This document shows positions 8,801 to 63,377 of a DNA stretch of 64,000 nt, piece by piece. Below the pieces are notes generated by a model, which saw nothing but the letters and a program-made list of their open reading frames with translations, searched no databases and had not been told where the DNA came from. Each line of letters starts with the position of its first letter. The stretch's first letter is position 1. Made by a program: the position numbers and the translations under genes. Origin of the DNA: Dromaius novaehollandiae (taxonomy: Eukaryota); NCBI RefSeq assembly GCF_036370855.1, contig NC_088128.1, forward strand, positions 356,899 to 420,898, given 5' to 3'.

Positions 8801-8843
8801 CTGCACCCCCGCCGAGACGAAGCCCCGCCCCCTCCCCGCGCAG

Positions 8844-9063
8844 GCATTGGCTGGCGGGCGCCTACCCGGCCTTCGCGGTGCCCTACTTCGTCTACGACGT
8901 CTACGCCATGTTCCTCTGCCACTGGCACCGGGGCCGCGTCAAGGGCCACGAGGCCGGGCCACCGCCCTCGCTGCGGGCCGCCGCCGCCGCCTACCTCCGC
9001 AAGGACCTGCTCATGGTGCTCCACCACGCCGCCATGGTGCTCGTCTGCTTCCCCGTGGCCGCC
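8844..9063 (+). CDS. TLCD3B: TLCD3-family coding exon 3 (TLC domain core): (Q)HWLAGAYPAFAVPYFVYDVYAMFLCHWHRGRVKGHEAGPPPSLRAAAAAYLRKDLLMVLHHAAMVLVCFPVAA
   Basis: Acceptor cgcgcag|G at 8842-8843. Donor GCC|gtgagt at 9064. Conserved TLC-domain motifs are present (YDxYAM, HW, LxxHHAxxL). Confidence 0.8.
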
Positions 9064-10790
9064 GTGAGTGGGGACGGGGCGCGGGGACACGTTGGGGACG
9101 TGGGAACGGCTTGGGGACATGGGGACGTCTTGGGGACGTGGGATGGGGGGCCACCACCATGGGGGAGAGGTTCTCATGGTGGCTGCCATGGTTCCCGTTG
9201 GCCATCATGAGTGGGGACAGGGCTTGGGGACACCTTGGGGACATGGGGACATCTTGGGGACGTGGGATGGGGGGCCACCACCTTGGCGGAGATGTTCCCG
9301 TGGTGGCCGCCATGGTGGTTGTCTACTTCTCTTTGGCCACTATGAGTGGGGACAGGGCTTGGGGACACCTTGGGGACATGGAAATGGCCTGGGGACATTT
9401 GGAACATCTTGGGGACGTGGGATGGGGGGCCACCACCATGGGGGAGATGTTCTCGTGGGGGCCGCCATGGTGCTCATCTGCTTCCCTGTGGCCGCCGTGA
9501 GTGGGGACGGGGCTTGGGGACACGTTGGGGACGTGGGAACGGCTTGGGGACATGGGGACGTCTTGGGGACGTGGGATGGGGGGCCACCACCATGACGGAG
9601 ATGTTCTCGTGGGGGCCGCCATGGTGGTTGTCTACTTCTCTTTGGCCATCATGAGTGGGGACAGGGCTTGGGGACACCTTGGGGACGTGGAAACGGCTTG
9701 GGGACATGGGGACGTCTTGGGGACGTGGGATGGGGGGCCACCACCATGGGGGAGAGGTTCTCGTGGTGGCCGCCATGGTGCTCGTCTGCTTCCCCGTGGC
9801 TGCCGTGAGTGGGGACGGGGCTTGGGGACACGTTGGGGACGTGGAAGTGGCTTGGGGACATTGGGAACGTCTTGGGGACGTGGGATGGGGGGCCACCACC
9901 ATGGGGGAGAGGTTCTCATGGTGGCCGCCATGGTTCTCCTTTGGCCACTATGAGTGGGGACAGGGCTTGGGGACACCTTGGGGACATGGGGACGTCTTGG
10001 GGACGTGGGATGGGGGGCCACCACCTTGGCGGGGAGGTTCTCGTGGTGGCCACCATGGTGGTTGTCTACTTCTCTTTGGCCATCATGAGTGGGGACAGGG
10101 CTTGGGGACATCTTGGGGACGTGGAAATGGCTTGGGGACATTGGAACGTCTTGGGGACATGGGATGGGGGCCACCACCTTGGCCGGGAGGTTCTCATGGT
10201 GGCCGCCATGGTGCTCATCTGCTTCCCCGTGGCCGCCGTGAGTGGGGACGGGGCGCGGGGACACGTTGGGGACATGGAAACAGCCTGGGGACATGGGGAC
10301 GTCTTGGGGACACCAAGATGGCTCAGGGGTGGAGGAACGTCTTGGGGACGTGGGATGGGGGGCCACCACCATGGGGGAGATGTTCCCATGGTGGCTGCCA
10401 TGGTTCTCCTTTGGCCACTATGAGTGGGGACGGGGCTTGGGGACACCTTGGGGACATGGAAACGGCTTGGGGACATGGGGATGTCTTGGTGACATGGGAT
10501 GGGGGGCCACCACCATGGGGGAGAGGTTCTCATGGTGGCCGCCATGGTGGTTGTCTACGTCTCTTTGGCTGCCGTGAGTGGGGACGGGGCTTGGGGACAC
10601 CTTGGGGACATGGAAATGGCTTGGGGACATGGGGACGTCTTGGGGACATGGGATGGGGGGCCACCACCATGGCGGAGATGTTCCCATGGTGGCCACCACG
10701 GTTCCCCTTGGCCACCACGAGTGGGGACAGGGATCGGGGCCACCGTGGGGGTTGGGGCCCCCCCGGGTTGGCCCCCCCGGGCCCTCGTGT
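9064..10790. repeat. Array with about 140-bp unit and about 425-bp higher-order repeat in TLCD3B intron 3. Each higher-order copy contains a copy of the last 40 or so nt of exon 3 plus its GTGAGT donor.
   Basis: 'gccgccatggtgctcatctgcttcccYgtggcYgccgtgagtggggacgggg' at 9455-9500, 9765-9812 and 10197-10245. Degenerate copies (ATGAGT) at 9215, 9340, 9645 and 10075. Confidence 0.85.
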
Positions 10791-10832
10791 CCCCGTGTCA
10801 CCCCGTGTCCCCCCCCCCCCCCGTGTCCCCAG

Positions 10833-10928
10833 CTGTGGCGCCAGGGCAAGGGCGACTTCTTCCTGGGCTGCCTGCTCATGGCGGAGCTCAGCACCCCCTT
10901 CGTCTGCCTCGGCAAGGTGCTCGTCCTG
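10833..10928 (+). CDS. TLCD3B: TLCD3-family coding exon 4: LWRQGKGDFFLGCLLMAELSTPFVCLGKVLVL
   Basis: Acceptor ccccag|CTG at 10831-10832. Donor CTG|gtgagc at 10929. Phase 0 to 0. Conserved 'GDFFxGC...AELSTPFVxLG' motif. Confidence 0.8.
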
Positions 10929-10929
10929 G

Positions 10930-11960
10930 TGAGCCGGACGCCGGGGCCCCTCGGGGGCGGGGCCGGGACGCCGGGGCCCCTCGGGGGGACGGGAGGGCCC
11001 CCGGACGCCTGGGTCCCTCGGGAGGACGTGGGTGGGGTGGGAGGAACCTGGGACGCCTGGGCCCCTCGGGAGGACGTAGGGGTGAATTGGGGCCCCCACC
11101 CACCCGGACACCTGGGCCCCCGGACGCCTGGGCCCCTCGGGAGGACGTAGGGGTGAATTGGGGTCCCCGGACGCCTGGGCCCTTCGGGAGGACGTAGGGG
11201 TGAACCAAGGCCCCCACCCACCCGGACACCTGGGCCCCTGGGTGCTTGGACACTTGGGCCCCCCACGCTGTTGGCCGCCCGGACGCCTGGGCCCCTGCAC
11301 ACTTGGGTCCCCGGACACCTGGGCCCCCGCTCTCTTGGCCACCCGGACACCTGGGCCCCTTGGGAGGCCATAGGGGTGAACCAGGGCCCCTGGACACCTG
11401 GGTGCCCGGACGCCTGGGCCCCTGCATGCTTGGGTCCCCGGACACCTGGGCCCCTTGGGAGGTCATAGGGGTGAACCAGGGCCCCCGGACGCCTGGGCGC
11501 CCGGACGCCTGGGTCCCCGGACACCTGGGCCCCTTGGGAGAACATACGGGTGAACCAGGGCCCCTGGAACCTTGGGTCCCCGGACGCCTGGGCCCCTGGG
11601 TGCTTGGACACTTGGGCCCTCTCTCTCTTGGCCACCTGCTCCCCCGGAACCTGGGGTGCCCGGACGCCTGGGCCCCCCGCGCCGTTGCCTGCCCGGACAC
11701 CTGGGCCCCTTGGGAGGCCAGAGGGGTGAATCAGGGCCCCCGGACACCTGGGCCCCCGGACACCTGGGCCCCTTGGGAGGTCATAGGGGTGAACCAGGGC
11801 CCCTGGAACCTTGGGTGCCCGGACACCTGGGCCCCTGGGTGCTTGGACACTTGGGCTCCCTCTCTCTTGGCCACCTGCTCCCCCGGAACCTGGGGTGCCC
11901 GGACGCCTGGGCCCCCCGCGCCGTTGCCCGCCCGGACGCCTGGGCCCTCCCCCCCTCCCC
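10930..11960. repeat. About 60-bp minisatellite (CCGGACGCCTGGGCCCCTCGGGAGGACGTAGGGGTGAATTGGGGCCCC) in TLCD3B intron 4
   Basis: Direct reading. It shares the 'cggacgcctgggccc' core with the 7900-8800 array. Confidence 0.9.
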
Positions 11961-11971
11961 GCCCCGGCTAA

Positions 11972-12256
<285 letters not shown>

Positions 12257-12289
12257 CGGCGGGGGGGGGCGGGGGGCACCCTTGGGTGC

Positions 12290-13300
12290 GGGGGGTGGTG
12301 TCCTGGGAGCATCCTTGGGTGGCCCCAAGATGGCGGTTGCGGCGTAGGAGCACCCTTGGGTGGCCTCAAGATGGTGGCCATCGCCTAGAAGCGCTTTTGG
12401 GTGCTTTCAGGGTGGTGGCCATCTTCTAGGAGCACCCTTGGGTGTTCTCAAGATGGTGGTTGTGTCCTAGGAGCTCTTTTGGATGTTCTCAAGATGGTGG
12501 CCATCTCCTGGGAGCACTCTTGGGTGTCCCCAAGATGGCGGCCATCTCCTAGGAGCGCTCTTGGGTGTCTTCAAGATGGCGACCATCTCCTACAAGCACT
12601 TTTGGATGTTCTCAAGATGGTGGTCATGTCCTGGGAGCACCCTTGGGTGGCCTCAAGGTGATGGCCATCGCCTAGAAGCACTTTTGGATGTTCTCAAGAT
12701 GGTGGCCATGTCCTAGGAGCACCTTTGGGTGCTTTCAGGGTGCTGGCCATCTTCTAGGAGCGCCCTTGGGTGTCCTCAAGATGGTGGTCATCTTCTGGGA
12801 GCACCCTTGGGTGTCCTCAAGATGGCGGTTGTGTCATAGGAGCACGCTTGGGTGTTCTCAAGATGGTGGCCATCACCTAGAAGCGCTTTTGGGTGTCCTC
12901 AAGATGGTGGTCATCTTCTGGGAGCACTCTTGGGTGTCCCCAAGATGGTGGTCATGTCTTAGGAGCACCCTTGGGTGTTCTCAAAATGGCGGTTGTGTCG
13001 TAGGAGCACCCTTGGGTGGCCTCAAGATGGTGGCCATCTCCTGGGAGCACCTTTGGGTATTCTCAAGATAGTGGTCATCTTCTGGGAGCACCCTTGGGTG
13101 TCCTCAAGATGGTGGCTATCTCTTAGAAGCACTTTTAGATGTTTTCAAGATGGTGGCCATGTCCTGGGAGCACCCTTGGGTGTTGGGGGGCGTGGTGGGT
13201 GTCTCTTGGGAGCACCCTTGGGTGTCCCCAAGGTGGTGGCCATCTCCTAGAAGCACTTTTGGATGTTCTCAAGATGGTGGCCATGTCCTAGGAGCGCCCT
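12290..13300. repeat. 41-bp minisatellite of about 24 copies, each carrying a YY1-like AAGATGG(C/T)GGCCATC motif, in the TLCD3B 3' UTR
   Basis: Unit 'ctaggagcacccttgggtgttctcaagatggtggccatctc'. Exact AAGATGGCGGCC at about 12530 and 12330. Confidence 0.85.
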
Positions 13301-35067: not shown

Positions 35068-35152
35068 CTGCGGGTGACAGGCGGCGTGTGGGTGACACCG
35101 CCGTCGCCGGTGCGGCAGTGCGGCGGGGACAACCCGCGGGTGCCGGCGGTAC

Positions 35153-38257: not shown

Positions 38258-38337
38258 CTGGCGGAGGGGGACAGGCGGGGTGTCACCGCCGGGGGCGTCA
38301 CCGGTGTCCCCGAGGTCCCCCGCGTCCCCCCGCCTAC

Positions 38338-45999: not shown

Positions 46000-48900
46000 A
46001 CTATGGGGCGGAGGAGGGCGCCGTGGGGCGGAGGAGGCTGCCGTGGGGCGGGGGGGGGGGGTCACGGGGTGGGGGGCAGAACGTCTCCCGAGGGCCACGT
46101 GGACTCACTGGGCGATGGAGGAGCTCATCGTGGGGGCGGGTGAGGTCATCACTGGGGCGGGTGAGGTCACCGTGGGGCGGGCGAGGTCACTGTGGGGCAG
46201 AGGAGGCCGCCGTGGGGCAGATGAGGTCACCGTGGGGCAGATGATGTCAGCAGGCAGCAGATGAGGTCACTAGGGAGCAAAACACCTCATCAGGAGACAC
46301 ATGGACCCACCATGGGCCACAGGAGCCATCTGGGGGGCAGAGGAGCTCGCTATGGGGCAGAGGAGGTCACTGTGGGGCAGAGGAGATCGCTATGGGGCAG
46401 ATGAGGTCACCGTGGGGCAGATGATGTCAGCAGGCAGCAGATGAGGTCACTAGGGAGCAAAACATCTCATCAGGAGACACATGGACCCACCATGGGCCAC
46501 AGGAGCCATCTGGGGGGCAGAGGAGCTCGCTATGGGGCAGAGGAGGTCACTGTGGGGCAGAGGAGATCGCTATGGGGCAGATGAGGTCACCGTGGGGCAG
46601 ATGATGTCAGCAAGCAGCAGATGAGGTCACTAGGGAGCAAAACATCTCATCAGGAGACACATGGACCTACCATGGGCCACAGGAGCTATCTGGGGGGCAG
46701 AGGAGCTCGCTATGGGGCAGAGAAGGTCGCTATGGGGCAGATGAGGTCACCGTGGGGCAGATGATGTCAGCAGGCAGCAGATGAGGTCACTGGGGGACAA
46801 AACATCTCATCAGGAGACACATGGACCCACCATGGGCCACAAGAGCCGTCTGGGGGGCAGAGGAGCTCGCTATGGGGCAGAGGAGGTCACTGTGGGGCAG
46901 AGGAGGTCACCGTGGGGCAGATGATGTCAGCAGGCAGCAGATGAGGTCACTGGGGGACAAAACATCTCATCAGGAGACACATGGACCCACCATGGGCCAC
47001 AAGAGCCGTCTGGGGGGCAGGTGAGCTCACTATGGGGCAGAGGAGGCCACCGTGGGGCAGAGGAGCTTGCCGTGGGGCAGGAGAGCTCACTGTGGGGCAG
47101 GAGACCTTGCTGGGGGGGCAGAAGAGCTCGCTGTGGGGCAGACGAGGTCATCTGGGGACAAAACATCTTGTTGGGGGGCACAAGATGGGGGGTAGAAGAG
47201 CTCGCTGTGGGGCAGAAGATCTCACCATGGGGCAGGAGACCCTGACATGGAGCAGAAGAGCTCGCTGTGGGGCAGAAGAGCTCATCATGGAGGCAGATGG
47301 CCTTGCCATGGGGCAGATGAGCTCGCCGTGGGGCAGGAGACCCTGATGTGGGGCAGAGGAGCTTGCCGTGGGGCAGATGAGCTCGCTGTGGGGCAGGAGA
47401 CCCTGATGTGGGGCAGAAGAGCTCGCTGTGGGGCAGATGAGCTCGCCATAGGGCAGATGAACTCATCATGGAGGCAGATGGCCTCGCCGTGGGGCAGGAG
47501 AGCTCCCTAGGGGCAGATGAGCTTGCTGTGGGGCAGGACACCTTGCTGTGGGGCAGGAAATGTCACCGTGGGGCAGATGAGCTGGCCATGGGGCAGATCC
47601 CCCTCACCGTGGGACAGAGGGGCTTGCCGTCGGGCAGGAGAACGCACCGTGGGGCAGCAGACCTCGCCATGGGGCAGACTGGCTCCCTGTGGGGCAGATC
47701 CTCCTCACCGTGGGGCAGACCCACTTCGCTATGGGGCAGATTTGCTTGCCATGGGGCAGACCCCCTTTGCGGTGGGGCAGATCCGTCTTTCCATGGGGCA
47801 GATGGGCTCACCGGAGGGCAGACCCCCCTCACCGTGGGGCAGATCTCCTCGCCATGGGGTGGATCCCCCTCGCTATGGGGCAGATTTGCTCCCCGTGGGG
47901 CAGATCCCCTTCACCGTGGGGCAGGAGGCCTCACCATGGGGCTGATCCCCCTCACCATGGGGCAGATTTGCTCCCTGTGGGGCAGGAGGCCTCACTGGGG
48001 GGCAGATCCCCCTCGCCGTGGGGCAGGAGGCCTCGCCGTGGGGCAGATGCAGCTGCCATGGGGCAGGAGGCCTGGTCGTGGGGCAGATTTGCTCCCCATG
48101 GGGCGGATCCCCCTCACCGTGGGGCAGATTTGCTCCCCATGGGGCAGAAGGCCTCGCCATGGGGCAGATCCCCCTCGCCATGGGGCAGACCCCCCTCGCC
48201 GTGGGGCAGATTGGCTCCCCGTGGGGCAGACTGGCTCCCCGTGGGGCAGACCCCCCTCACCATGGGGCAGACCCCCCCTCGCCATGGGGCAGACCCCCCT
48301 CGCCGTGGGGCAGATTGGCTCCCCGTGGGGCAGACCCCCTCGCCATGGGGCAGACCCCCCTCGCCGTGGGGCAGATTGGCTCCCCGTGGGGCAGACTGGC
48401 TCCCCGTGGGGCAGACCCCCCTCGCCATGGGGCAGACCCCCCTCGCTGTGGGGCAGACTGGCTCCCCGTGGGGCAGACCCCCCCCTCGCTGTGGGGCAGA
48501 CTGGCTCCCCGTGGGGCAGACCCCCCTCGCCGTGGGGCAGACTGGCTCCCTGTGGGGCAGACCCCCCTCGCCATGGGGCAGACCCCCCCTCGCCGTGGGG
48601 CAGACTGGCTCCCCGTGGGGCAGACGCCCTCACCATGGGGCAGACCCCCCCTCGCCGTGGGGCAGACCCCCCTCGCCGTGGGGCAGATTGGCTCCCCGTG
48701 GGGCAGATCCCCCTCGCCGTGGGGCAGATTGGCTCACGAGGGAGGGGCAGGAGGCCTCGCCATGGGGCAGAGGCAGCTGCTGTGGGGCAGGAGGCCTCGC
48801 TGTGGGGCAGATGCAGCTGCCGTGGGGCAGGAGGCCTGGCCGTGGGGCAGATTTGCTCCCCATGGGGCGGATCCCCCTCGCCGTGGGGCAGATTTGCTCC

Positions 48901-49860
48901 CCATGGGGCAGAAGGCCTCACCATGGGGCAGATCCCCCTCGCCATGGGGCAGACCCCCCTCGCCGTGGGGCAGACTGGCTCCCCGTGGGGCAGACCCCCC
49001 CTCGCCGTGGGGCAGATTTGCTCCCCGTGGGGCAGAAGGCCTCGCCATGGGGCAGACCCCCCTCGCCATGGGGCAGACCCCCCTCGCTGTGGGGCAGATT
49101 GGCTCCCCGTGGGGCAGACCCCCCTCGCCATGGGGCAGACCCCCCTCGCCGTGGGGCAGACTGGCTCCCCGTGGGGCAGACCCCCTCGCCATGGGGCAGA
49201 CCCCCCTCGCCGTGGGGCAGACTGGCTCCCTGTGGGGCAGAAGGCCTCACCATGGGGCGGATCCCCCTCGCCATGGGGCAGACCCCCCTCACCGTGGGGC
49301 AGACTGGCTCCCCGTGGGGCAGACCCCCCTTGCCGTGGGGCAGACCCCCCTCACCGTGGGGCAGACTGGCTCCCCGTGGGGCAGACCCCCCTCGCCGTGG
49401 GGCAGACTGGCTCCCCATGGGGCAGACCCCCCTCACCGTGGGGCAGATTGGCTCCCCGTGGGGCAGATCCCCCTCGCCATGGGGCAGACCCCCCTCGCCG
49501 TGGGGCAGACTGGCTCCCCGTGGGGCAGAAGGCCTCACCATGGGGCAGACCCCCCTCGCCATGGGGCAGACCCCCCTCGCCGTGGGGCAGATTGGCTCCC
49601 CGTGGGGCAGACCCCCTCGCCATGGGGCAGACCCCCCTCGCCGTGGGGCAGATTGGCTCACCAGGGAGGGGCAGGAGGCCTCGCCGGGGGGGGGGCAGCT
49701 CCCCTCGCCGTGGGGCAGCCGCAGCCGCCGGGGGGGCAGGAGGCCTGGTTGGGGGGCAGCTCCCCTCGCCGTGGGGCAGGAGGCCTGGTTGGGGGGCAGC
49801 TCCCCTCGCCGTGGGGCAGGAGGCCTGGTTGGGGGGGGGGGGGGGCAGCTCCGGCCCCGG
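46000..49860. repeat. About 21-bp minisatellites upstream of MVP: (GGGGCAGAGGAGCTCGCTATG)n, then (CCCCCTCGCCGTGGGGCAGACTGGCTCCCCGTGGGGCAGA)n
   Basis: Direct reading. These give the 886-, 900- and 758-aa artefactual ORFs. Confidence 0.9.
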
Positions 49861-49999
49861 GGGCGGAAGCGGCGTCGCAGCCCTTTGCCCTGGCCCCGCC
49901 CCCCGCCGCGCCCGGCCCCGCCCCCATCGCGCCCGGCCCCGCCCCCGCCGCCCGGCCACGCCCCCGGCCACGCCCCCCGGGGCAGGACCAACCCCCCCC

Positions 50000-52900
50000 C
50001 CCCCTCACCCCCCTCCCCGCGGATTTATCCCCCCCCGCGGATTTATTCCCCCCCCCCGGGGATTTATTCAACCCCCCCAGGGGTTTACTTCCCCCCCCCG
50101 GGTTTATTCACCCCCCCGGGTTATTTAACCCCCCCGGGGATTTATTCACCCCCCCAGGGGTTTATTCCCCCCCCCAGGTTTATTTACCCCCCCAGGGGAT
50201 TTATTCACCCCCCCCGGGTTTATTCACCCCCCAGGTTTATTTCCCCCCCCAGGTTTATTTACCCCCCCGGGTTTCCCCCCCCCGGGTTATTTAACCCCCC
50301 CCGGGGATTTATTCACCCCCCCAGGGGTTTATTTCCCTCCCCGGGTTTATTTACCCTCCCCGGGTTTATTCACCCCCTCCGGGTTATTTAACCCCCCCGG
50401 GGATTTATTTACCCCCCCCGGGTTTATTTACCCCCCCCGGGGATTTATTCACCCCCCCAGGGGTTTATTTCCCCCCCGGGTTTATTTACCCTCCCCGGGT
50501 TTATTCACCCCCTCCGGGTTATTTAACCCCCCCGGGGATTTATTTACCCCCCCCGGGGATTTATTCACCCCCCCCGGGGATTTATTCACCCCCCCCGGGG
50601 TTTATTCCCCCCCCCGGGTTTATTTACCCCCCCCGGGTTTATTTACCCCCCCCGGGTTTATTCACCCCCTCCGGGTTATTTAACCCCCCCGGGGATTTAT
50701 TCACCCCCCCCGGGGTTTATTCCCCCCCCCGGGTTTATTCACCCCCCCCCGGGTTTATTCACCCCCCCCCGGGTTTATTCACCCCCTCCGGGTTATTTAA
50801 CCCCCCCGGGGATTTATTCACCCCCCCCGGGTTTATTCACCCCCCCCCGGGTTTATTCACCCCCCCCGGGTTTATTTACCCCCCCCGGGTTTATTCACCC
50901 CCTCCGGGTTATTCACCCCCCCCCGGCGATTTATTCACCCCCCCCGGGGTTTATTCACCCCCCCCGGGTTTATTTACCCCCCCCGGGTTTATTCACCCCC
51001 TCCGGGTTATTTAACCCCCCCGGGGATTTATTCACCCCCCCCGGGGTTTATTCCCCCCCCCGGGTTTATTCACCCCCCCCGGGTTTATTCACCCCCCCCG
51101 GGTTTATTTACCTCCCCCGGGTTTATTCGCCCCCCCCGGGTTATTTAACCCCCCCGGGGATTTATTCACCCCCCCAGGGGTTTATTCACCCCCCCCCGGG
51201 TTTATTTACCCCCCCCGGGTTTATTCACCCCCTCCGGGTTATTTAACCCCCCCGGGGATTTATTCACCCCCCCCGGGGTTTATTCCCCCCCCCGGGTTTA
51301 TTCACCCCCCCCCGGGTTTATTCACCCCCTCCGGGTTATTTAACCCCCCGGGGATTTATTCACCCCCCCCGGGTTTATTCACCCCCCCCGGGTTTATTCA
51401 CCCCCCCCGGGTTTATTTACCCCCCCCGGGTTTATTCACCCCCTCCGGGTTATTCACCCCCCCCCGGCGATTTATTCACCCCCCCCGGGGTTTATTCACC
51501 CCCCCCGGGTTTATTTACCCCCCCCGGGTTTATTCACCCCCTCCGGGTTATTTAACCCCCCCGGGGATTTATTCACCCCCCCCCGGGGTTTATTCCCCCC
51601 CCCGGGTTTATTCACCCCCCCCGGGTTTATTCACCCCCCCCGGGTTTATTTACCTCCCCCGGGTTTATTCGCCCCCCCCGGGTTATTTAACCCCCCCGGG
51701 GATTTATTCACCCCCCCAGGGGTTTATTCACCCCCCCCGGGTTTATTTACCCCCCCCGGGTTTATTCACCCCCTCCGGGTTATTTAACCCCCCCCGGGGA
51801 TTTATTCACCCCCCCAGGGGTTGATTCCCCCCCCAGGTTTATTTACCCCCCCGGGTTTATTCACCCCCTCTGGGTTATTTACCCCCCCGGGGATTTATTC
51901 ACCCCCCCCAGGGGTTTATTCCCCCCCCCAGGTTTATTTACCCCCCCAGGGGATTTATTCACCCCCCCAGGGGTTTATTCACCCCCCCGGGTTTATTTAC
52001 CCCCCCGGGTTTATTCACCCCCTCCGGGTTATTTAACCCCCCCCGGGGATTTATTCACCCCCCCAGGGGTTGATTTCCCCCCCCGGGTTTATTTACCCCC
52101 TCCGGGTTATTTAACCCCCCCCCCGGGGATTTATTCCCCCCCCTGGTTATTTAACACCCCCCAGGGATTTATTTCCCCCCCCGGGGGGTTATTCCCGCCC
52201 CCCCGGGTTTATTCACCCCCCCCGGGGATTTATCCCCCCCCCAGGTGGGTTATTTCCCCCCCTGGGATTTATCCCCCCCCCAGTTCATTAACCCCCCCGA
52301 GGCGGGTTATTTCCCCCCCCCGGGTGTTTATTCGCCCCCCGGGTGTTATCGCCCCCCCCCGCGTTATTCACACCCCCCAAGTTTATTTACCCCCCCAGGG
52401 GGGTTATTCGCCCCCGCCTGGGTTTATTCCCCCCCCGGGGTTATTCACCCCCCCCAGGGGATTTATTTCCCCCCCCGGGTTTATTCACCCCCTCCGGGTT
52501 ATTTAACCCCCCCCGGGGATTTATTCACCCCCCCAGGGGTTTATTTTCCCCCCCAGGTTTATTCACCCCCCCAGGGGGTTTATTCCCCCCCCGGGTTTAT
52601 TCGCCCCCCCCCGGGTTATTTAACCCCCCCGGGGATTTATTCCCCCCCCCGGGTTATTTAACACCCCCCAGGGATTTATTTCCCCCCCGGGGGGGTTATT
52701 CCCGCCCCGGGGTTTATTCACCCCCCCCGGAGTTATTCCCCCCCCCGGGTTTATTCACCCCCCCCGGGGATTTATCCCCCCCCCAGGTGGGTTATTTCCC
52801 CCCCGAGGTTTATCCCCCCCTGGGTTCATTAACCCCCCCCGAGGCGGGTTATTTCCCCCCCCCGGGTGTTTATTTGCCCCCCCGGGTGTTATCGCCCCCC

Positions 52901-53380
52901 CCCGCGTTATTCACACCCCCCAAGTTTATTTACCCCCCCAGGGGGGTTATTCGCCCCCCCCCCGGGTTTATTCCCCCCCCGGGTTTATTCCCCCCCCGGG
53001 GTTATTCACCCCCCCCAGGGGATTTATTCCCCCCCCCCGGGTTTATTCACCCCCTCCGGGTTATTTAACCCCCCCCGGGGATTTATTCACCCCCCCAGGG
53101 GTTTATTTCCCCCCCCAGGTTTATTTACCCCCCCGGGTTTATTCACCCCCTCCGGGTTATTTAACCCCCCCGGGGATTTATTCACACCCCCCCCGGGTTT
53201 ATTCACCCCCCCCAGGTTTATTTACCCCCCCCGGGGTTATTCACCCCCCCAGGGGATTTATTTCCCCCCCCCGGGTTTATTTGCCCCCCCGGGTTTATTT
53301 CCCCCCCCCGGGTGTTTATTCGCCCCCCCGGGTGTTATTGCCCCCCCCCGGGGTTATTCACCCCCCCCCCCCCGGGCGGC
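50000..53380. repeat. About 19-20-bp minisatellite (CCCCCCGGGTTTATTCA)n of about 170 copies. Every unit carries AATAAA on the minus strand.
   Basis: Direct reading. GGGTTTATT(C/T)A units. The reverse complement is TGAATAAACCC. Confidence 0.9.
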
Positions 53381-55860: not shown

Positions 55861-55949
55861 ATGGCGGCGGCAGGTCGCGGCGGCGGCGCCCGGGGGTGGG
55901 GGGGGGAAGACGGGGAGCGGGACGGGGGTGGCCCCGGGGGGGGGGGTGG

Positions 55950-56940
55950 CCCTGGGAGGGGACAAGCCCTGAGGGGACAAATGCTGGGGGGGGCGACGGG
56001 GGGGGGAACAACCCTTGGGGGGGGACAAGCCCTGGGGGGGGGGACAGCCCCGGAGGGGGGTCACAAGGGAGGGGACAAGCCCTGAGGGCGGGTGACAAGG
56101 AGGGGGACAAGTCCTGGGGGGAGGGGACAAGGAGGGGGAAGCCCCGGGTGGGGGGGACAAGCCCTGAGGGGGGAAAATGCCTTGGGGGGGGTGACAAGGG
56201 GGGTGACAAGCCCCAAAGGGGGGGACACAAGCCTTGGGGGGGTGACAAGGGAGGGGACAAGCGCTGAGGGGGGTGACAAGAGAGGGGACAAGCCCTGAGG
56301 GGGGTGACAAGGGGGAAGAAGCCCTGGGGGGGGAGACAAGCCCTGGGGGGGAGAACAAGCCCTGGGGGAGGGTGACAAGGGGGGGACAAGCCCTTGGGGG
56401 GGGACAAGCCCTGGGGGGGGACAAGGAGGGGGAAGCCCCGGGTGGGGGGGACAAGCCCTGAGGGGGGGGAAATGCCTTGGGGGGTTGGCAAGGGGGGTGA
56501 CACAAGCCTTGGGGGGGTGACAAGGGAGGGGACAAGCCCTGAGGGGGGTGGCAAGGGGGAAGAAGCTCTTGGGGGGGGGACAAGCCCTGGGGGAGGGTGA
56601 CAAGGGGGGGACAAGCTCTTGGGGGGGGGACCAGGTGGGGGGACAAGCCCCAAGGGGGAGTGACAACCCCTGAGAGGGGGACAAGGGAGGTGACAAGCCC
56701 TGAGGGGGGGGGACAGGCCTGAGGGGGGTGACAAGGCAGGTGACAAGCCCTGAGGGGGGGGACAGGCCTGAGGCGGGTGACAAGGCGGGTGACAAGCCCT
56801 GAGGGGGGTGACAAGGGAGGTGACAACCCCTGAGGGGGGGTGACAACCCCTGAGGGGGGGGTGACAACCCGAGGGGGGGTGACAAGCCCTGAGGGGGGGG
56901 ACAAGAGGGGGGACACCCCCAAGGGCCACACACCGGGGCT
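55950..56940. repeat. (GGGGACAAGCCCTGAGGGGGGTGACAAGGGAGG)n in KIF22 intron 1
   Basis: Direct reading of the sequence. Confidence 0.85.
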
Positions 56941-57012
56941 AACCGTGGGGGGGGGCTGTCACCCGCACCCACAGGCGACAGCACCCATGGGTGCCGGGGG
57001 CACCGGGTGCAG

Positions 57013-57119
57013 GTGTGCGTGCGGCTGCGGCCCGGCGCCGCCGGCGAGGAGCCCCGGGTGCTGCCCGTGGACGCCCGCACCCTCCGCCTCCTCCACGGCC
57101 CCGGCGCCACCGAGTACCG
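57013..57119 (+). CDS. KIF22: KIF22 coding exon (motor domain start): VCVRLRPGAAGEEPRVLPVDARTLRLLHGPGATEY(R)
   Basis: Acceptor gggtgcag|GTG at 57011-57012. Donor CG|gtaaaa at 57120. Matches human 'VRVAVRLRPF...' at the start of the kinesin motor domain. Confidence 0.75.
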
Positions 57120-57192
57120 GTAAAACAGGGTGACAAAGGCGCCGGGTGACACCCATGGGTGCCCCCCGCGTCACCCTTGTCGCCGGTTGTAG

Positions 57193-57320
57193 CTTCGACG
57201 CCGTCTACGGCCCCGGCGCCTCGCAGAGCGACGTCTACCTGGGCTCCGTGCGCCCGTTGTTGTCCCACCTGGCGCAGGGCCGCAACGTCACCGTCCTCGC
57301 CTACGGGCCCAGCGCCGCCG
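57193..57320 (+). CDS. KIF22: KIF22 coding exon: (R)FDAVYGPGASQSDVYLGSVRPLLSHLAQGRNVTVLAYGPSAA(G)
   Basis: Acceptor ttgtag|C. Donor G|gtgagt. Matches human '[43 protein letters not shown]' (first half of the P-loop). Confidence 0.85.
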
Positions 57321-57394
57321 GTGAGTCCCCCCCCCGCCGCACGACAGCACCCATGGGTGCCCCAGCACCCTGAGCACCCCGTTTGCGTCCCCAG

Positions 57395-57525
57395 GGAAGA
57401 CCTACACCATGCTGGGCAGCGCCGAGGAGCCGGGCGTCATCCCCCGGGCCGTGCGGGACCTGCTGGGGCTGGCGGGGCCCTGTGCCACTGTCACCGCGTC
57501 CTACCTGGAGATCTACCAGGAGCGG
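57395..57525 (+). CDS. KIF22: KIF22 coding exon: (G)[43 protein letters not shown]
   Basis: Acceptor gtccccag|GG. Donor CGG|gtgagg. Matches human '[24 protein letters not shown]...SYLEIYQEK' (P-loop GKT). Confidence 0.85.
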
Positions 57526-57589
57526 GTGAGGCGGGGGCACCCATGGGTGCTGCGCGGCGGGGGGTGCCACCACCCACCCTTTCTTTCCC

Positions 57590-59040
57590 ACCCAAATCTG
57601 GGTGTTTTTGCCTCAGGGTGACGCCCAGCGGGTGCCACCTCCCCGTCAGCCATTTTGTCCTCCTCAAATCTGGGTGTTTTCACCTCAGGTTGACGCCCAG
57701 TGGGTGCTGCCACCCATCACCCTTCGTTTCCCACCCAAATCTGGATATTTTTGCTTCAGGGTGCCACCCAGCGGGTGCCACCGCCCCATCAGCCATTTTG
57801 TCCCCTCAAAGCTGGGTGTTTTTACCTCAGGGTGACGCCCAGCGGGTGCCACCACCCCGTCAGCCATTTTGTTTCGCTCAAATCTGGGTGTTTTCACTTC
57901 AGGGTGACGCCCAGTGGGTGTTACCACCCCATCAGCCATTTTGTCTCCTCAGATCTGAGTGTTTTTGTCTCAGGGTGACACCCAGTTGGTGCCACCACCC
58001 TGTCAGCCATTTTGTCCCCCTTAAATCTGGGTGTTTTTACCTCAGGACGACACCCAGTGGGTGCTGCCACCCATCACCCTTCGTTTCCCCCCAAATCCAG
58101 GCTGTTTTCACCTCAGAGTGACACCCAGTGGGTGCCACCACCCTGTCAGCCATTTTGTCCCCCCAAATCTGTGCTTTTTCCACCCCGTCAGCCATTTTGT
58201 CCCCCTCAAATCTAGGTGTTTTCATCTCAGGGTGACACCCAGTGGGTGCTGCCACCCATCACCCTTCGTTTCCCATTTGAATCTGGGTGTTTTCACCTCA
58301 GGGTGACGCCCAGCGGGTGCCACCACCCTGTCAGCCATTTTGTCCCCCTCAAATCTGGGTGTTTTTACCTCAGGGTGACACCCAGCAGGTGCCACCACCC
58401 CATCAGCCATTTTGTCCCCCCAACCCGCACGTTTTCCACCCCGTCGGCCATTTTGTCCCCCCAAATCTGTGCGTTTTCCACCCTATCGGCCATTTTGTCC
58501 CCCAAACCCACACGTTTTCCACCCCGTCGGCCATTTTGTCCCCCAAACCTGTGTGTTTTCACCCCATCAGCCATTTTGTCCCCCAAACCCACACGTTTTC
58601 CACCCTGTCAGCCATTTTGTCCCCCAAATCCGTGCTTTTTCCACCCTGTCGGCCATTTTGTCCCCCAAACCTGCGCATTTTCCACCCCGTCGGCCATTTT
58701 GTCCCCCAAACCTGCGCATTTTCCACCCCGTCAGCCATTTTGTCCCCCCAACCCGCACGTTTTCCACCCCGTTGGCCATTTTGTCCCCCAAACCCACATG
58801 TTTTCCACCCTGTCAGCCATTGTGTCCCCCCAAACCCGTGCGTTTCTGCCCCGGGTGACCCCACAGCAGGTGCCACCATCTTGTCAGCCATTTTGTCCCC
58901 CAAATCCGTGCTTTTTCCACCCTGTCAACCATTTTGTCCCCCCAACCCGTGCGTTTTCCACCCCATCAGCCATTTGTCCCCCCAACCCACACGTTTTCCA
59001 CCCTGTCGGCCATTTTGTCCCCCAAACCCGCGCGTTCCCA
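57590..59040. repeat. About 59/118-bp minisatellite in KIF22 intron 4. Units carry CAGCCATTTTGTCC (YY1-like core) and acceptor-like TGTTTTTACCTCAG|GGTGAC.
   Basis: Direct reading. About 12 copies of 'atctgggtgtttt(t/c)acctcagggtgacgcccag'. Later copies read 'ccgtcggccattttgtcccccaaacc'. Confidence 0.9.
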
Positions 59041-59072
59041 CCCCGGCTGACCCCGTCCCCCACCCCGCGCAG

Positions 59073-59688
59073 CTCGTGGACCTGTTCGCCCCGCCGGGCC
59101 CCCCGCTACGCCTCCGCGACACCTCCCCGCCGGCGGTGCCGGGCTTGACCGAGGTGCCCGTGCGCGACGCCGCCGCCTTCGAGCGCCTCTTCGTCCCCGC
59201 CGCCCGCCGCCGCCGCCGCGCCGCCGCCACCCGCCTCAACGCCGCCTCCAGCCGGGGCCACGCGTTGCTGCTGCTCCGCCTGCGCCCCCCCGGCGTCACC
59301 TTGCTGCTGGGGGACCTGGCGGGCGCCGAGGACAACCGGCGCACGGGCAACGCCGGCCGGCGCCGCCTGCGCGAGAGCGGTGCCATCAACGCCTCCCTGG
59401 GGGCCTTGCGGCGGGTGGTGGCCGCCCTGGCGCGGGGTGACGGCCGCCGGCGGCGTCACCCGGTGCCGTACCGCGACAGTAAGTTGACGCGGGCGCTGCG
59501 CGACGCCCTGGGCGGCTCGGCCCGCGCTCTGCTGCTGGCCGCCGTGGCGCCGGGGCCCCGCGAGGCCGCCGCCGCTCGCGCCGCCCTCGACTTTGCCGCC
59601 GCTGCCGCCGGCGTCGTCAACCGCGACGTGGTGGTGGCTGCACCGCCGGAGCCACCGTCGGAGCCGGAGCCGGGTGACGGGGAGCAGG
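59073..59688 (+). CDS. KIF22: KIF22 large coding exon (switch I/II and neck): LVDLFAPPGPPLRLRDTSPPAVPGLTEVPVRDAAAFERLFVPAARRRRRAAATRLNAASSRGHALLLLRLRPPGVTLLLGDLAGAEDNRRTGNAGRRRLRESGAINASLGALRRVVAALARGDGRRRRHPVPYRDSKLTRALRDALGGSARALLLAAVAPGPREAAAARAALDFAAAAAGVVNRDVVVAAPPEPPSEPEPGDGEQ
   Basis: Acceptor ccgcgcag|CTC at 59071-59072. Kinesin signatures are present: SSRGH (SSRSH), DLAGAE (DLAGSE), VPYRDSKLTR. The first in-frame-compatible donor is CAGG|gtgagg at 59689. The same donor sequence is repeated about 14 times in the downstream array, so the 3' boundary could be a later copy. Confidence 0.75.
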
Positions 59689-59689
59689 G

Positions 59690-60560
59690 TGAGGCCAAAC
59701 GGGGACGTTGGGTGACGTTGGGGGACGTTGGGGGACATTGGGGACCACAGTGAGGCCAAGGGGGGGCGTTGGGGACCAGGGTGAGGTCACCGGGGGGACG
59801 TTGGGGGATGTTGGGGACAAGGGTGAGGCCAAGGGGAGACGTTGGGGACCAGGGTGAGGCCAAGGGGAGACGTTGGGGACCATGGTGAGGCCAAGTGGGG
59901 ACATTGGGGGACATTGAGGACAGGGATGAGGCCAAGGGGGGACGTTGCGGGACATTGGGGACAAGGATGAGGCCACCAGGAGGATGTTGGGGGACATTGG
60001 GGACCAGGGTGAGGCCAAGGGGAGGACATTGGGGACCACAGTGAGGCCAAGGGGAGACGCTGGGGACCAGGGTGAGGCCGAGCGGGGACATTGGGGGACG
60101 TTGGGGACCACAGTGAGGCCAAGGGGAGACGCTGGGGACCAGGGTGAGGCCAAGGGGGGACGTTGGAGACCAGGGGACATTGGGGACCAGGGTGAGGCCA
60201 CTGGGGAGACATTGGGAGATGTTGGGAGACATTGGGCGATGTTGGGGACAAGGATGAGGCGGGGGGGACACGTTGGGGGACATTGGGGACCAGGGTGAGG
60301 CCAAGGGGGATGTTGGGGACCAGGGTGAGGTCACCAGGGGGATGTTTGGAGATGTTGGGGGACGTTGGGGGACATTGGGGACCAGGATGAGGCCAAGCGA
60401 GGACATTGGGAGATGTTGGGGGACGTTGGGGACCGGGGTGAGGCCAAAGGGGGACATTGGGGACCCGGTGAGGACAGGGGGGCGCCGGGGACCTGTGGGG
60501 GTGACAAGGAGGGACATTGGGGACATGGGGGGACACTGGGGACACAGAGGGGACACTGGG
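59690..60560. repeat. About 60-bp minisatellite directly abutting KIF22 exon 5. It contains about 14 copies of that exon's donor context CCAGG|GTGAGGCCAAGG.
   Basis: Exon end 'ggagcagggtgaggccaaacgggg' versus repeats 'ggaccagggtgaggccaaggggagacgttgg'. Confidence 0.85.
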
Positions 60561-60600
60561 GGGACATTGGGGTCCCCTCACCCCCTCGCTCCCTCCGCAG

Positions 60601-60634
60601 GTGCCGCTGACGTCCCCGACACCCCGCAGGCCGG
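60601..60634 (+). CDS. KIF22: KIF22 small coding exon: (G)AADVPDTPQA(G)
   Basis: Acceptor ccctccgcag|GTG. Donor GG|gtaggc. Phase links exon 5 (phase 1) to the next exon. Weak conservation. Confidence 0.45.
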
Positions 60635-61273
60635 GTAGGCACCCATGGGTGGGGGGCCTGGGGGGTCCCCGGGGTGTCCCCAGGGTGCCCGAGGGGGGTT
60701 CCTAGGGTGGCACAGGGCCCCCAGAGTGTCCTCGAGGGTCCCTAGAGTGTCACAGGGTCCCCAGGGTGCTCCGGGGGGGTCCCTAGGGTGGCACAGGGTC
60801 CCCAGGGCGTCCCAGGGTGCTCTGGGGGGTCTCTAGGGTGTCAGAGGGTCCCCAGGGTGTCCCAGGGTGCCCTGGGGGGTCCCTAGGGTGGCAGAGGATC
60901 CCTGGGGGGGTCCCTAGGGTGGCGCAGGGTCCCCAGGGTGTCCCAGGGTGCCCTGGGGGGTCCCTAGGGTGGCAGAGGACCCCTGGGGGGGTCCCTAGGG
61001 TGGCGCAGGGTCCCCAGGGTGTCCCCATGGTGCCGGGGGGGGTCCCCAGGGTGTCCCCAGGATGCCCGGGGGGTCCCTAGGGTGTCCTGGGGTCTCTGGG
61101 GTGTCCCCAGGGTGCCTGGGGTGTTCTCTAGGGTGGCACGGGGTGCCCGGGGGGGTCCTGGGGGGTCCCTAGGGTGTCCTGGGGTCCCCGGGGTGCTTTG
61201 GGGGGTCCCTAGGGTGGCACAGGGTGCCCTGGGAGGTCCCCGGCTAACGGGTGCCCCCCCGCCGTGTCCCCAG

Positions 61274-61331
61274 GGCGCCGGCGTCCCCCTCGCTGCTGCG
61301 CCGCCTCGACGACGCCCAGGAGCTGCTGGAG
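61274..61331 (+). CDS. KIF22: KIF22 coding exon: (G)APASPSLLRRLDDAQELLE
   Basis: Acceptor gtccccag|G. Donor GAG|gtgagc. Resembles human 'DPAMLERLLSLDRLLAS'. Confidence 0.5.
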
Positions 61332-61888
61332 GTGAGCGCTGGCACCCGCGGGCGACGGGGACACCCATGGGTGCTGGGGACACCCGCAGGGGACCAGGGA
61401 CACCCTCGGGTGCTGGGGACACCCACCGGGTGCATGTGACACCCGCGGGCGAGGGGGACACCCATGGGTGCTGGGGACACCCACAGGTGCTGGTGACATC
61501 CACTGAGTGTTGGTGACACCCACGGGGGACCAGGGACACCCACGGGTGCCAGTGATACCCGTGGGGGACCAGGGACACCCGTGGGTGCCGTGACACCCAC
61601 CAGGTACCGGTGACACCAGTGGGTGGACAAATGATACCTGCCGGGTGGCAGTGACACCCATGGGTGACAAGGGACACCCACTGGGTGCTGGTGACACCCA
61701 CTGGGTGCCAGTGACACCCCTGGAGGGACAAGTGACACTCTCTGGGTGCCAGTGACACCCACCGGGCACTGGCAACACCCATGGGGGGACAAGTGACACC
61801 CACTGGGTGCCAGTGACACCCCTGGAGGGACAAGTGACACCCACCGGCTGCCGGTGACACCCATGGGTGCTCCCCTGCTCCTCCGCAG

Positions 61889-62023
61889 AAGCTGAAGGCC
61901 CGGCACCCGCCCACGCCGGCGGCACCCCGGGGGGCTCCCGGCACCCCGCCCCCCTCCCCGCCCCAGGGCCCAGGCGTCCGGGTGTCCCCGGCCGAGGCGC
62001 CCGTGGTGCTGCTGCGCAGGAAG
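61889..62023 (+). CDS. KIF22: KIF22 coding exon: KLKARHPPTPAAPRGAPGTPPPSPPQGPGVRVSPAEAPVVLLRRK
   Basis: Acceptor ctcctccgcag|AAG. Donor AAG|gtgggt. Phase 0 to 0. Basic and proline-rich linker. Weak conservation. Confidence 0.45.
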
Positions 62024-63212
62024 GTGGGTGCTGGCGGCGGCGGGGGGCACCCATGGGTGCTGGGGGGGCACCATGGGTGGTGGTGGGGGCACCCGTGGGT
62101 GCTGGGGGGGCACCATGGGTGATGGTGGGCACCCAAGGGTGGTGGTGGGGGCAGCCATGTTTGGGGGGTCACTCGTGGGTGCTGGTGGGGGGCACCCATG
62201 GGTCCTGGGGACAGCCGGGGTGCTAGTGGGGGGCACCCATGGGCACTGGGGACACCCAGGGGTGCTGGTGGAGACCCACGGGTGCTGGTGGGGGGCACCC
62301 ACAGGTGGTGGGGGGGCCCCATGGGCACTGGGGACACCCGTGGGTGCTGGTTGGGGTCACCTGTGGGCACTGGGGACACCCAGGAGCGGTGGTGGGGGGC
62401 ACCCATGGGTGCTGGTGGGGACCCATGGCTGGTGGGGGGGGCCCCCATGGGCACTGGGGACACCCTTGGGTGCTGGTGGGGACCTACGGGTGCTGGTTGG
62501 GGACACCTGTGGGTGGGGGGACCCATGGGTGCTGGTGGGGGGGCACCTGTGGGCCCTGGGGACACCCATGGGTGCTGGTGGGGACCCACAGGTGCTGGTT
62601 GGGGTCACCTGTGGGTGTTGGGGGGCCCCCATGGGCACTAGGGACACCCATGGGTGCTGGTTGGGGTCACCTGTGGGCACTGGGGACACCCAGGAGCGGT
62701 GGTGGGGGGCACCCATGGGTGCTGGTGGGAACCCATGGCTGGTGGGGGGGGCCCCCATGGGCACTGGGGACACCCATGGGTGCTGGTGGGGATCACCTGT
62801 GGGTGGGGGGACCCGTGGGTGCTGGTGGGGGGGCACCTATGGGCACTGGGGACACCCATGGGTGCTGGTGGGGACCTACAGGTGCTGGTTGGGGACACCC
62901 ATGGGTGTTGGGGGGCCCCCATGGGCACTGGGGACACCCATGGGTGCTGGTGGGGACCCACAGGTGCTGGTTGGGGTCACCTGTGGGCACTGGGGACACT
63001 CATGGGTGCTGGTGGGGACCCATGGGTGCTGGGGGGGGCACCTATGGGCCCTGGGGACACCCATGGGTGCTGGTGGGGACCCATGGGTGCTGGTGGGGGG
63101 GCACCTATGGGCCCTGGGGACACCCATGGGTGCTGGGGGGGGGTCACCTGTGGGTGGGGGCCCCCGTGGGTGCCGGGTAGCACCCATGGGTGCCACCACG
63201 GTGTCCCCGCAG

Positions 63213-63377
63213 GGCGGGGGGGGCTGGGAGGCGCGGCGTCGCCCCGAGCTGCTGGCGGCCGCCGGGCGCCGGGTGCTGCGGGGGCTCAACGGGGACCCGG
63301 GGGCCCTGCGGCGGGTGGGCACCCGCCGGGCCCGGCGCCTCCTGGCCTGGCGCCGCCACCGCGGCCCCTTCGCCCGC
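63213..63377 (+). CDS. KIF22: KIF22 coding exon (helix-hairpin-helix DNA-binding region): GGGWEARRRPELLAAAGRRVLRGLNGDPGALRRVGTRRARRLLAWRRHRGPFAR
   Basis: Acceptor gtccccgcag|GGC. Donor CGC|gtgagt. Matches human '[43 protein letters not shown]'. The gene continues past the window end. Confidence 0.7.

Follow-up and report, generated by a model that had tools for sequence, protein, structure and literature searches.

Within the 64,000 nucleotides (nt) of Dromaius novaehollandiae contig NC_088128.1 analysed here (positions 356,899 to 420,898 of the forward strand, hereafter the window, whose own numbering is used throughout), the 3′ end of KIF22 exon 5 and its 5′ splice site constitute the first unit of a tandem array that runs through intron 5. 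With a probability of roughly 80%, this array is a junction-spanning minisatellite and an instance of exon stuttering, in which a lateral part of an exon is copied together with its splice site through the adjacent intron. Sequence stuttering and exon stuttering have already been described on chicken dot chromosomes (Hron et al., Genome Biol Evol 2026, PMC12954441; preprint 10.1101/2025.09.16.676548), and KIF22 adds a case with an unusually short exon share and no new mechanism.

Anatomy of the intron 5 array

Exon 5 (59073-59688, plus strand) is 616 nt long, ends in phase 1, and encodes the second half of the motor domain and a non-conserved linker. Its borders are cag/ (59072) and /GTGAGG (59689), where the slash marks the exon-intron boundary; 59688 is the last exon base and 59689 the G of GT. 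The 3′ end of the exon reads ...GGGGAGCAGG/GTGAGGCC and encodes ...PEPGDGEQ, which belongs to the linker that follows the motor domain. Intron 5 occupies 59689-60600 (912 nt; 49% G, 17% C), and Tandem Repeats Finder (TRF) reports arrays over 59701-60572, about 870 nt, with periods of 10, 31, 42, 72, 103, 133, and 187 nt. A scan for [G/A]TGAGG[C/T/A][C/G] returns 19 core copies beyond the real donor (59750-60468), for a total of 20 with the real donor included, 16 carrying GT and four AT. Spacing ranges from 30 to 62 nt and is chiefly 31 or 41 nt. Each unit consists of a 31-nt core, GGGGACCAGG/GTGAGGCCAAGGGGGGACGTT, and zero to three additional 10-nt GGGGGACRTT subunits; the copies are 60-90% alike and are arranged in higher-order blocks of 72 and 187 nt. 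The proposal, made in a preliminary description of the locus, that the exon 5 donor is the first unit of a minisatellite is thus borne out by the consensus match given below, while its count of about 14 copies is too low.

The array can be divided into four parts, all read on the plus strand. (i) The first unit lies across the junction (59679-59749) and comprises the 10 exon nucleotides GGGGAGCAGG, then GTGAGGCCAAACGGGGACGTT, then three 10-nt GGGKGACRTT subunits. It contains the authentic 5′ splice site, GTGAGG at 59689-59694 in the context AGG/GTGAGG, which is the sole GT copy with a frame open into exons 6-9. (ii) The 19 further core copies, recovered by the motif scan and by TRF (15 with GTGAGG, four with ATGAGG), extend over 59740-60498 and share the consensus core. 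(iii) A degenerate tail lacking the donor core (60499-60572) is built of 10-19-nt GGGGACAYTG-type subunits, reported by TRF at 60503-60561 and 60519-60572. (iv) The 3′ end of the intron (60573-60600) is non-repetitive, falls in the TRF gap 60573-60662, and holds the pyrimidine tract and acceptor ctcaccccctcgctccctccgcag/. The copies are imperfect, direct, and tandem (59679-60498) and are confined to the intron, with exons 5 and 6 intact. In unit length (10-100 bp), head-to-tail arrangement, extent (at least 0.5 kb), and G/C strand asymmetry, the array has the properties of a G-rich minisatellite. Intron 5 has seven non-overlapping G-quadruplex (G4) motifs, all of them on the plus strand; the whole window holds 543.

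At least the last 10 bases of exon 5 form part of the repeat unit. Aligned to the column consensus, the real junction GGGGAGCAGG/GTGAGGCCAAACGGGGACGTTGGG agrees at 9/10 positions on the exon side and at 22/24 on the intron side. A 9/10 match to GGGGACCAGG is found in 0.085% of the 3520 10-mers in the exons of KIF22 and of MVP, a second gene in the window (p ~0.0009). An independent repeat-family search placed the reference copy of its 22-member family D2 at 59679-59733, starting 10 nt inside the exon. The window contains 10 occurrences of the 9-mer AGGGTGAGG, where 2.7 are expected, and all of them fall in 59686-60330. When the gapped comparison with the unit is extended to 20 nt of exon, the result is suggestive only (p 0.027). 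Conservation of TGAGGCC among the copies is unusable as a sign of selection, as the copies were found by that motif.

A chance resemblance of the exon end to the unit in G-rich sequence, or an error of assembly, is hardly credible as an explanation. Almost half of the intron is G and GGGGAC-type repeats occur throughout the window, but the exon match falls at a pre-specified position and is rare among exon 10-mers, the first 24 intron nucleotides follow the consensus equally closely, and the copies are imperfect and structured, unlike the products of collapse or duplication errors.

Coding competence of the donor copies

The exon 5 donor is ambiguous at the level of the splice motif and unambiguous for coding. 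Nine of the 19 downstream copies are identical to the real donor from -3 to +6, whereas six have a weakened -3 to -1 context (ACA/GT in three; ATG/GT, GGG/GT, and CCG/GT in one each) and four have AT in place of GT. Use of any of the 15 downstream GT copies would give a premature stop. Read-through past the real donor meets its first in-frame stop, TGA, at 59751-59753 (plus strand), inside the GTGAGG of the second copy. The donor at 59750 shifts the frame and leads to a stop two codons into the downstream exons, and the other 14 GT copies include the TGA. As a source of protein isoforms the alternative donors would have to keep the reading frame, and none of the 15 does so. The copy at 59689 is therefore the only coding-competent one, and the nine exons of the KIF22 model joined through it form a single open frame of 475 codons.

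Frame logic is required to pick this donor because KIF22 is only 48% identical to its turtle homologue, which is too low for homology to settle the exon end. The preliminary description had called the 3′ boundary of the exon ambiguous, any copy sequence-competent, and 59689 favoured by its frame with the exons at 60601-60634 and 61274-61331. The last point is confirmed by the 475-codon model, the only open one. The ambiguity persists for the splice motif, with its nine identical 9-mers, and disappears for coding; the general competence of the copies fails in view of the four AT copies, the six weakened contexts, and the lack of any coding-competent copy downstream.

Under exon definition, a donor that further lengthens an exon already 616 nt long is disfavoured, and the downstream donors would be disfavoured on these grounds as well. 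Skipping of the 34-nt exon 6 would, by sequence reading, lead to a stop in exon 8. Recursive splicing sites (AG/GT) were sought inside the units and none was found by sequence reading, because the units read CAGG/GT or CACA/GT. For donor 59689, the predicted spliced exon 5/6 junction is GAGCAGG/GTGCCGCT.

The repeated 5′ splice sites might nonetheless have a function, either being used in regulated unproductive splicing or being bound as a docking platform for the U1 small nuclear ribonucleoprotein. The nine copies that equal the real donor, the G-runs that follow every copy, and the coincidence of the G-rich strand with the KIF22 sense strand are in keeping with such a role. It is very unlikely, however, given the premature stop from every downstream donor, the loss of GT from four copies and the weakening of others at -1/-2 as under neutral decay, the low likeness among copies (60-90%), and the similar arrays of unrelated units that fill all other long introns.

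Identity and structure of the KIF22 gene

The translation of 59073-59688 is free of stops and matches the Pfam kinesin motor domain PF00225 in a profile search (E 7.8e-35). Its closest solved structure is human KIF22 (6nje, E 6.8e-37), with the next kinesins at E 1e-21 or worse, and among database proteins it comes nearest to KIF22 from turtle, lemming, lamprey, and snake (42-53% identity; turtle 48%). These matches assign exon 5 to KIF22, here a GC-rich and highly diverged gene whose product is biased toward Ala, Arg, Gly, and Pro. Its divergence far exceeds that of MVP in the same window (48% vs 83% identity to turtle). Protein searches with the KIF22 exon and with an MVP fragment gave no avian match. 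Switch I reads SSRGH in place of the SSRSH seen in 5/5 homologues that cover the motif, and the P-loop reads GPSAAGKT in place of the GPTGAGKT seen in the 3/3 homologues that cover it (lemming, snake, icefish). Very little sequence separates the motor domain from the C-terminal domain. The KIF22 motor may no longer be fully functional.

A search with the turtle, lemming, lamprey, and snake homologues (tblastn) and inspection of splice signals yield a model of nine exons, all on the plus strand. In addition to exon 5, these are exon 1 (55861-55873, uncertain; donor CAG/GT at 55873), exon 2 (56975-57119), exon 3 (57193-57320), exon 4 (57395-57525), the putative 34-nt exon 6 (60601-60634), the putative 58-nt exon 7 (61274-61331, ...SPSLLRRLDDAQELLE), exon 8 (61889-62023), and exon 9 (63213-63377). 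Exon 6 has AG and GT signals at its borders and is required to carry the frame from exon 5 to exons 7-9; exon 7 is likewise placed by splice signals and frame. The whole model matches the kinesin profile with E 1.4e-65, and the region in which the 475-codon frame ends aligns with the C-terminal portion of KIF22 from lamprey and fish (tblastn E 5e-4). Where exons 7 and 8 meet, the sequence SPSLLRRL...LE/KL resembles fish KIF22 SEPSVMDRLIALEKL only weakly (BLASTP E 13) and is suggestive at most; BLASTP of the C-terminal tail against fish KIF22 is too weak to validate exons 6-8.

At the 5′ end, three exon 1 donors are frame-compatible with exon 2 (55873, 55927, and 55945), and the start of the gene is uncertain. 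An exon 1 end at 55895 was rejected, as it breaks the frame, and 55873 was used instead. Intron 1 (within 55861-56974) is an array of GGGGGACAAGCCCTGAGGGGGGTGACAAGG-type units, and figures for this intron call for cautious reading since the 5′ end of the model is uncertain.

Exon 5 is flanked by arrays on both sides. Intron 4 carries a 41-nt unit, CCACCCCGTCAGCCATTTTGTCCCCCAAACCCGCGCGTTTT, over 58395-59072 on the plus strand (TRF 58395-59045, 16 copies). An ungapped search of intron 4 for copies of the exon 5 acceptor 16-mer found none. In a gapped alignment to the 41-nt unit, the last 35 nt of the intron score 11 against 5.3±1.8 for shuffles (p 0.008), while the other KIF22 acceptors score 0-6 in the same alignment. 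The pyrimidine tract and acceptor of exon 5 are thus the degenerate last unit of the intron 4 array.

The 12-nt perfect palindrome CACCCATGGGTG is a further peculiarity of this gene. It occurs 22 times in the window against 0.06 expected, with 21 occurrences inside KIF22 (56982-63192) and one at 37826. Within the gene it marks the 5′ end of exon 2 and both short introns (57150 and 57348), follows the donors of exons 4 and 6 by 12 and 5 nt, respectively, and precedes the exon 8 and exon 9 acceptors by about 20 nt. It also forms the core of the intron 7 and intron 8 arrays and is absent from intron 5. That unrelated introns of a single gene share this palindrome is at odds with stuttering of a strictly local kind.

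Regional repeat load and other junction-spanning arrays

The window is GC-rich throughout (57-77% in every 2-kb bin) and saturated with tandem repeats. The 576 rows returned by TRF condense into 87 arrays covering 82% of it, and tandem repeats take up 92% of the 19 long MVP and KIF22 introns (557-4565 nt). Arrays in the long introns start a median of 12 nt past the donor and end a median of 25 nt before the acceptor; adjacency to an array is the rule for every exon edge in the window, whatever the unit sequence. Periods cluster window-wide at 10, 20, 31, 41, 50, 61, 72, and 81 nt, which are multiples of about 10.3 (vector strength 0.52 at 10.25-10.33). Four short introns of 73-85 nt (57120-57192, 57321-57394, 38258-38337, and 35068-35152) contain no tandem repeat, although their GC-rich junctions are similar, and their neighbours measure 0.6-4.6 kb and are 66-99% repeat. 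These repeat-free introns probably show the ancestral intron size.

Five arrays in the window span a splice junction: four in the 19 long introns of MVP and KIF22 and one in TLCD3B, with four of the five on the donor side. The KIF22 exon 5 donor array has 19 copies and an exon share of at least 10 nt. Three others belong to MVP, a minus-strand gene (45954 to 14307) with 16 exons, an open frame of 850 codons, and turtle MVP as its closest database relative (83% identity). Its exon 2 donor array (43027-40506, intron 2, minus strand) has 16 copies with a period of about 155 nt, the junction CAG/GTACCT, and up to 78 exon nucleotides per copy. The copies carry the last 27 codons of exon 2 and the donor, and align to human MVP residues 81-107. 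The exon 9 donor array (27764-26716, intron 9, minus strand; GTGAGGCGCCGGGGAC) has seven copies at a spacing of about 150 nt with some 6 exon nucleotides (GGCCCG). The exon 12 acceptor array (20794-20093, intron 11, minus strand; TGTCCCCAG/) has at least six copies in a 16-mer scan, and its units hold up to 45 nt of the head of exon 12 (AACTTGAACCGGGTGATCTGCTC...) upstream of the real acceptor. It is a case of acceptor-side stuttering that creates upstream pseudo-acceptors. The fifth array adjoins a TLC-domain gene taken as TLCD3B (about 8800-12300, plus strand; PF03798, E 5e-25), whose donor near 9058, ...GTGGCCGCC/GTGAGTGGGGAC, recurs as a degenerate 18-nt motif at 9058, 9491, and 10232. Over 9234-10009, TRF finds 5.1 copies of a 154-nt period, within larger arrays that reach 10702.

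The published screen for exon stuttering, a blastn-short search of each exon against the adjacent intron with a minimum of 20 nt and more than 42.1 bits, was rerun on the KIF22 and MVP exons. It recovers MVP exon 2 in intron 2 (16 matches, up to 155 bits) and MVP exon 12 in intron 11 (three matches); shuffled controls reach at most 24.3 bits. MVP exon 2 with intron 2 is thus a textbook case that passes the published threshold, and the MVP exon 9 array joins KIF22 as a second junction-spanning array below it.

The preliminary description had counted four exon-edge arrays in the 64 kb (two in MVP, one in TLCD3B, and one in KIF22), had attributed them to a locus-wide process and not to coincidence, and had suggested replication slippage seeded at GC-rich splice junctions. 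The four arrays stand, and MVP exon 9 raises the count to five. A process acting across the locus is supported as a regional one, by the 82% coverage and the five arrays, and not as one specific to junctions. Seeding at GC-rich junctions is not upheld: arrays fill 92% of the long introns whatever their unit, and exon sequence is part of the unit at only about 5 of the 38 long-intron junctions, with TLCD3B in addition.

That exon edges act as slippage hotspots and are the origins of the repeats is accordingly unlikely. In its favour are the occurrence of five junction-spanning arrays in a single 64-kb window, the proximity of array starts to donors, and a donor-side excess: the first 16 intron nucleotides are repeated at least five times (with at most three mismatches) in 8/19 long introns and the last 16 in 2/19. 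This excess is not significant, however (Fisher p 0.06), and the exon side of five of the eight amplified donor-proximal 16-mers shows only a 5-28% match. Most units contain no junction sequence, saturation is independent of unit sequence, and the four short introns lack repeats despite their comparable junctions. Constraint alone would also yield a donor bias, with about 6 nt fixed at the donor against about 20-40 nt at the branch point, pyrimidine tract, and acceptor. A 31-nt duplication arising in an 80-nt intron could fall wholly within the intron at about 50 positions and across a junction at about 60; because about half of the tolerable duplications would overlap a junction, the observed share of junction-spanning arrays would need no special seeding. 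The evidence in the window argues against seeding specific to splice junctions, and general instability filtered by selection at exon edges suffices.

A bias of stuttering to 5′ splice sites beyond the purely random, to which the 8/19 against 2/19 count and the four donor-side arrays among the five would point, is improbable. Were a donor bias to hold genome-wide beyond the constraint at branch point and pyrimidine tract, the birth of repeats would be tied to events near donors such as co-transcriptional U1 binding, R-loops, or G4 folding. The published screen would then have overlooked many sub-threshold junction copies like those of KIF22, and dot-chromosome genes would regularly be burdened, or regulated, by arrays of decoy donors competent for U1.

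Apart from these genes, about 7 kb at 46121-53368 consists entirely of called tandem arrays with no exon recognised; the translated repeats are proline-rich (...PYGPH.../...SPQHP...). This stretch may be intergenic or may be a coding gene of repetitive sequence.

Origin of the array

The KIF22 array is read most simply as the outcome of local tandem duplication and array growth, to which the region is prone, with the ends of arrays set by selection on exons. The region has the appearance of a bird dot microchromosome, being very GC-rich, full of G4 motifs, and apparently prone to local tandem duplication. Ancestral intron 5 was probably short, about 70-100 nt, as is suggested by its non-repetitive remainder of about 73 nt (8% of 912), the same size as the unexpanded introns. 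A segment of about 31-41 nt, containing at least the last 10 bases of exon 5, the donor GTGAGG, and the first ~20 intron bases, would have been tandemly duplicated. Slippage, unequal exchange, or gene conversion would then have produced some 20 imperfect copies, and the later gain of 10-nt GGGGGACRTT subunits and of the 72- and 187-nt blocks would have brought the intron to 912 nt. The G4 motifs on the G-rich sense strand agree with models of replication stress or conversion.

Such a duplication across the donor would be near neutral, because the exon and one intact donor persist upstream and splicing from the first donor removes all copies. The real donor would be unit 1 because selection on the coding exon fixes the upstream limit of the array. 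The downstream pseudo-donors would be by-products, and transcripts that used them would carry a premature stop. The sequence itself shows the anatomy of the array, the exon bases within its unit, the consequences for the frame, and the saturation of the region with arrays; the short ancestral intron, the mode of duplication, and the use of the first donor are inferred.

The reverse order of events, in which the array arose first and the end of exon 5 and its donor were recruited from one of its units so that the exon tail is repeat-derived, is quite unlikely. The tail is indeed non-conserved linker, and weak similarity to the unit may extend 20-34 nt into the exon (p 0.027; a family D3 copy at 59655-59713, 64%). 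The clear cases in the window run from exon to intron, however: for MVP exons 2 and 12 the direction of copying appears clear from the sequences, as the copied parts are conserved coding sequence. The chicken pattern is also read as running from exon to intron (Hron et al., PMC12954441), and the first KIF22 unit sits exactly at the first position, as anchoring by selection would predict.

Several points weigh against exon stuttering as the origin of the KIF22 array. The exon share of its unit is short, with 10 nt secure and 20 nt suggestive (p 0.027), and exon 5 gives no match in the rerun screen, in which it is sub-threshold. Its tail, being non-conserved linker, may itself have come from the array. 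That the first donor is used is deduced from frame logic, and the putative exons 6 and 7 that enter this logic rest on splice signals and frame, without independent homology support. The dot-chromosome setting, finally, is drawn from sequence character and gene content.

Comparison with known systems

As for gene content, ALDOA adjoins the KIF22/MVP/TLCD3B gene set in human 16p11.2. ALDOA is placed on chicken chromosome 38 (PMC12954441), and the names KIF22, MVP, TLCD3B, and FAM57B do not appear in the main text and two supplementary text files of that study.

On chicken dot chromosomes, introns are filled with local imperfect repeats, with a median per-chromosome coverage of up to 93%; 3.4% of dot-chromosome introns show exon stuttering, with a median of four copies, more than 90% of sources at most 1 nt from the exon border, and strong length polymorphism among individual chickens (PMC12954441). 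The candidate mechanisms are G4-associated replication stress and meiotic conversion (PMC12954441). KIF22 intron 5 shares with this pattern (i) imperfect tandem copies of tens of bases that fill an intron of a GC-rich gene, (ii) a block composed of the lateral part of the adjacent exon with its donor, whose source lies at the exon border and whose exon is intact, and (iii) neighbouring introns saturated with unrelated arrays. It differs in its exon share of about 10 nt (20 at most), which lies under the screen limit. The KIF22 array is described from one haplotype.

Exon stuttering thus extends to units with only about 10 exon bases. The published 3.4% is likely an underestimate because units of the KIF22 type fall under the detection limit. 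For gene predictors applied to bird dot-chromosome assemblies, such arrays present strings of identical donors, nine of which equal the real one here.

For the zebra finch telomere-to-telomere assembly and seven other birds, a preprint (bioRxiv 10.1101/2025.10.17.683159) reports that tandem repeats account for more than 70% of intron sequence on dot chromosomes, that repeat units come in multiples of 10-11 bp, and that the coding strand of introns carries an excess of G4s. The introns of the window are similar in being more than 70% repeat with coding-strand G4s, as are the unit lengths in KIF22 intron 5 (10/31/41/51/61/72) and the window-wide periods in multiples of about 10.3. In contrast to the KIF22 case, units that contain splice junctions are not discussed in the passages of the preprint consulted, and KIF22, MVP, and TLCD3B are not named there. 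In its 10-100 bp unit, strong G/C asymmetry, and G4 potential, the KIF22 array also resembles the human minisatellites CEB1 and MS32, and its internal variant structure, likewise similar, suggests slippage and conversion. These classical G-rich minisatellites are isolated loci, often subtelomeric, that are neither anchored at junctions nor found in every intron.

The giant Y-linked genes of Drosophila have introns of megabase simple satellites that are heterochromatic, are not locally derived, and carry no splice sites in their units. Work on these genes (Fingerhut and Yamashita 2022) is cited in the discussion and reference list of PMC12954441. As in KIF22, tandem repeats inflate their introns while the exons stay intact.

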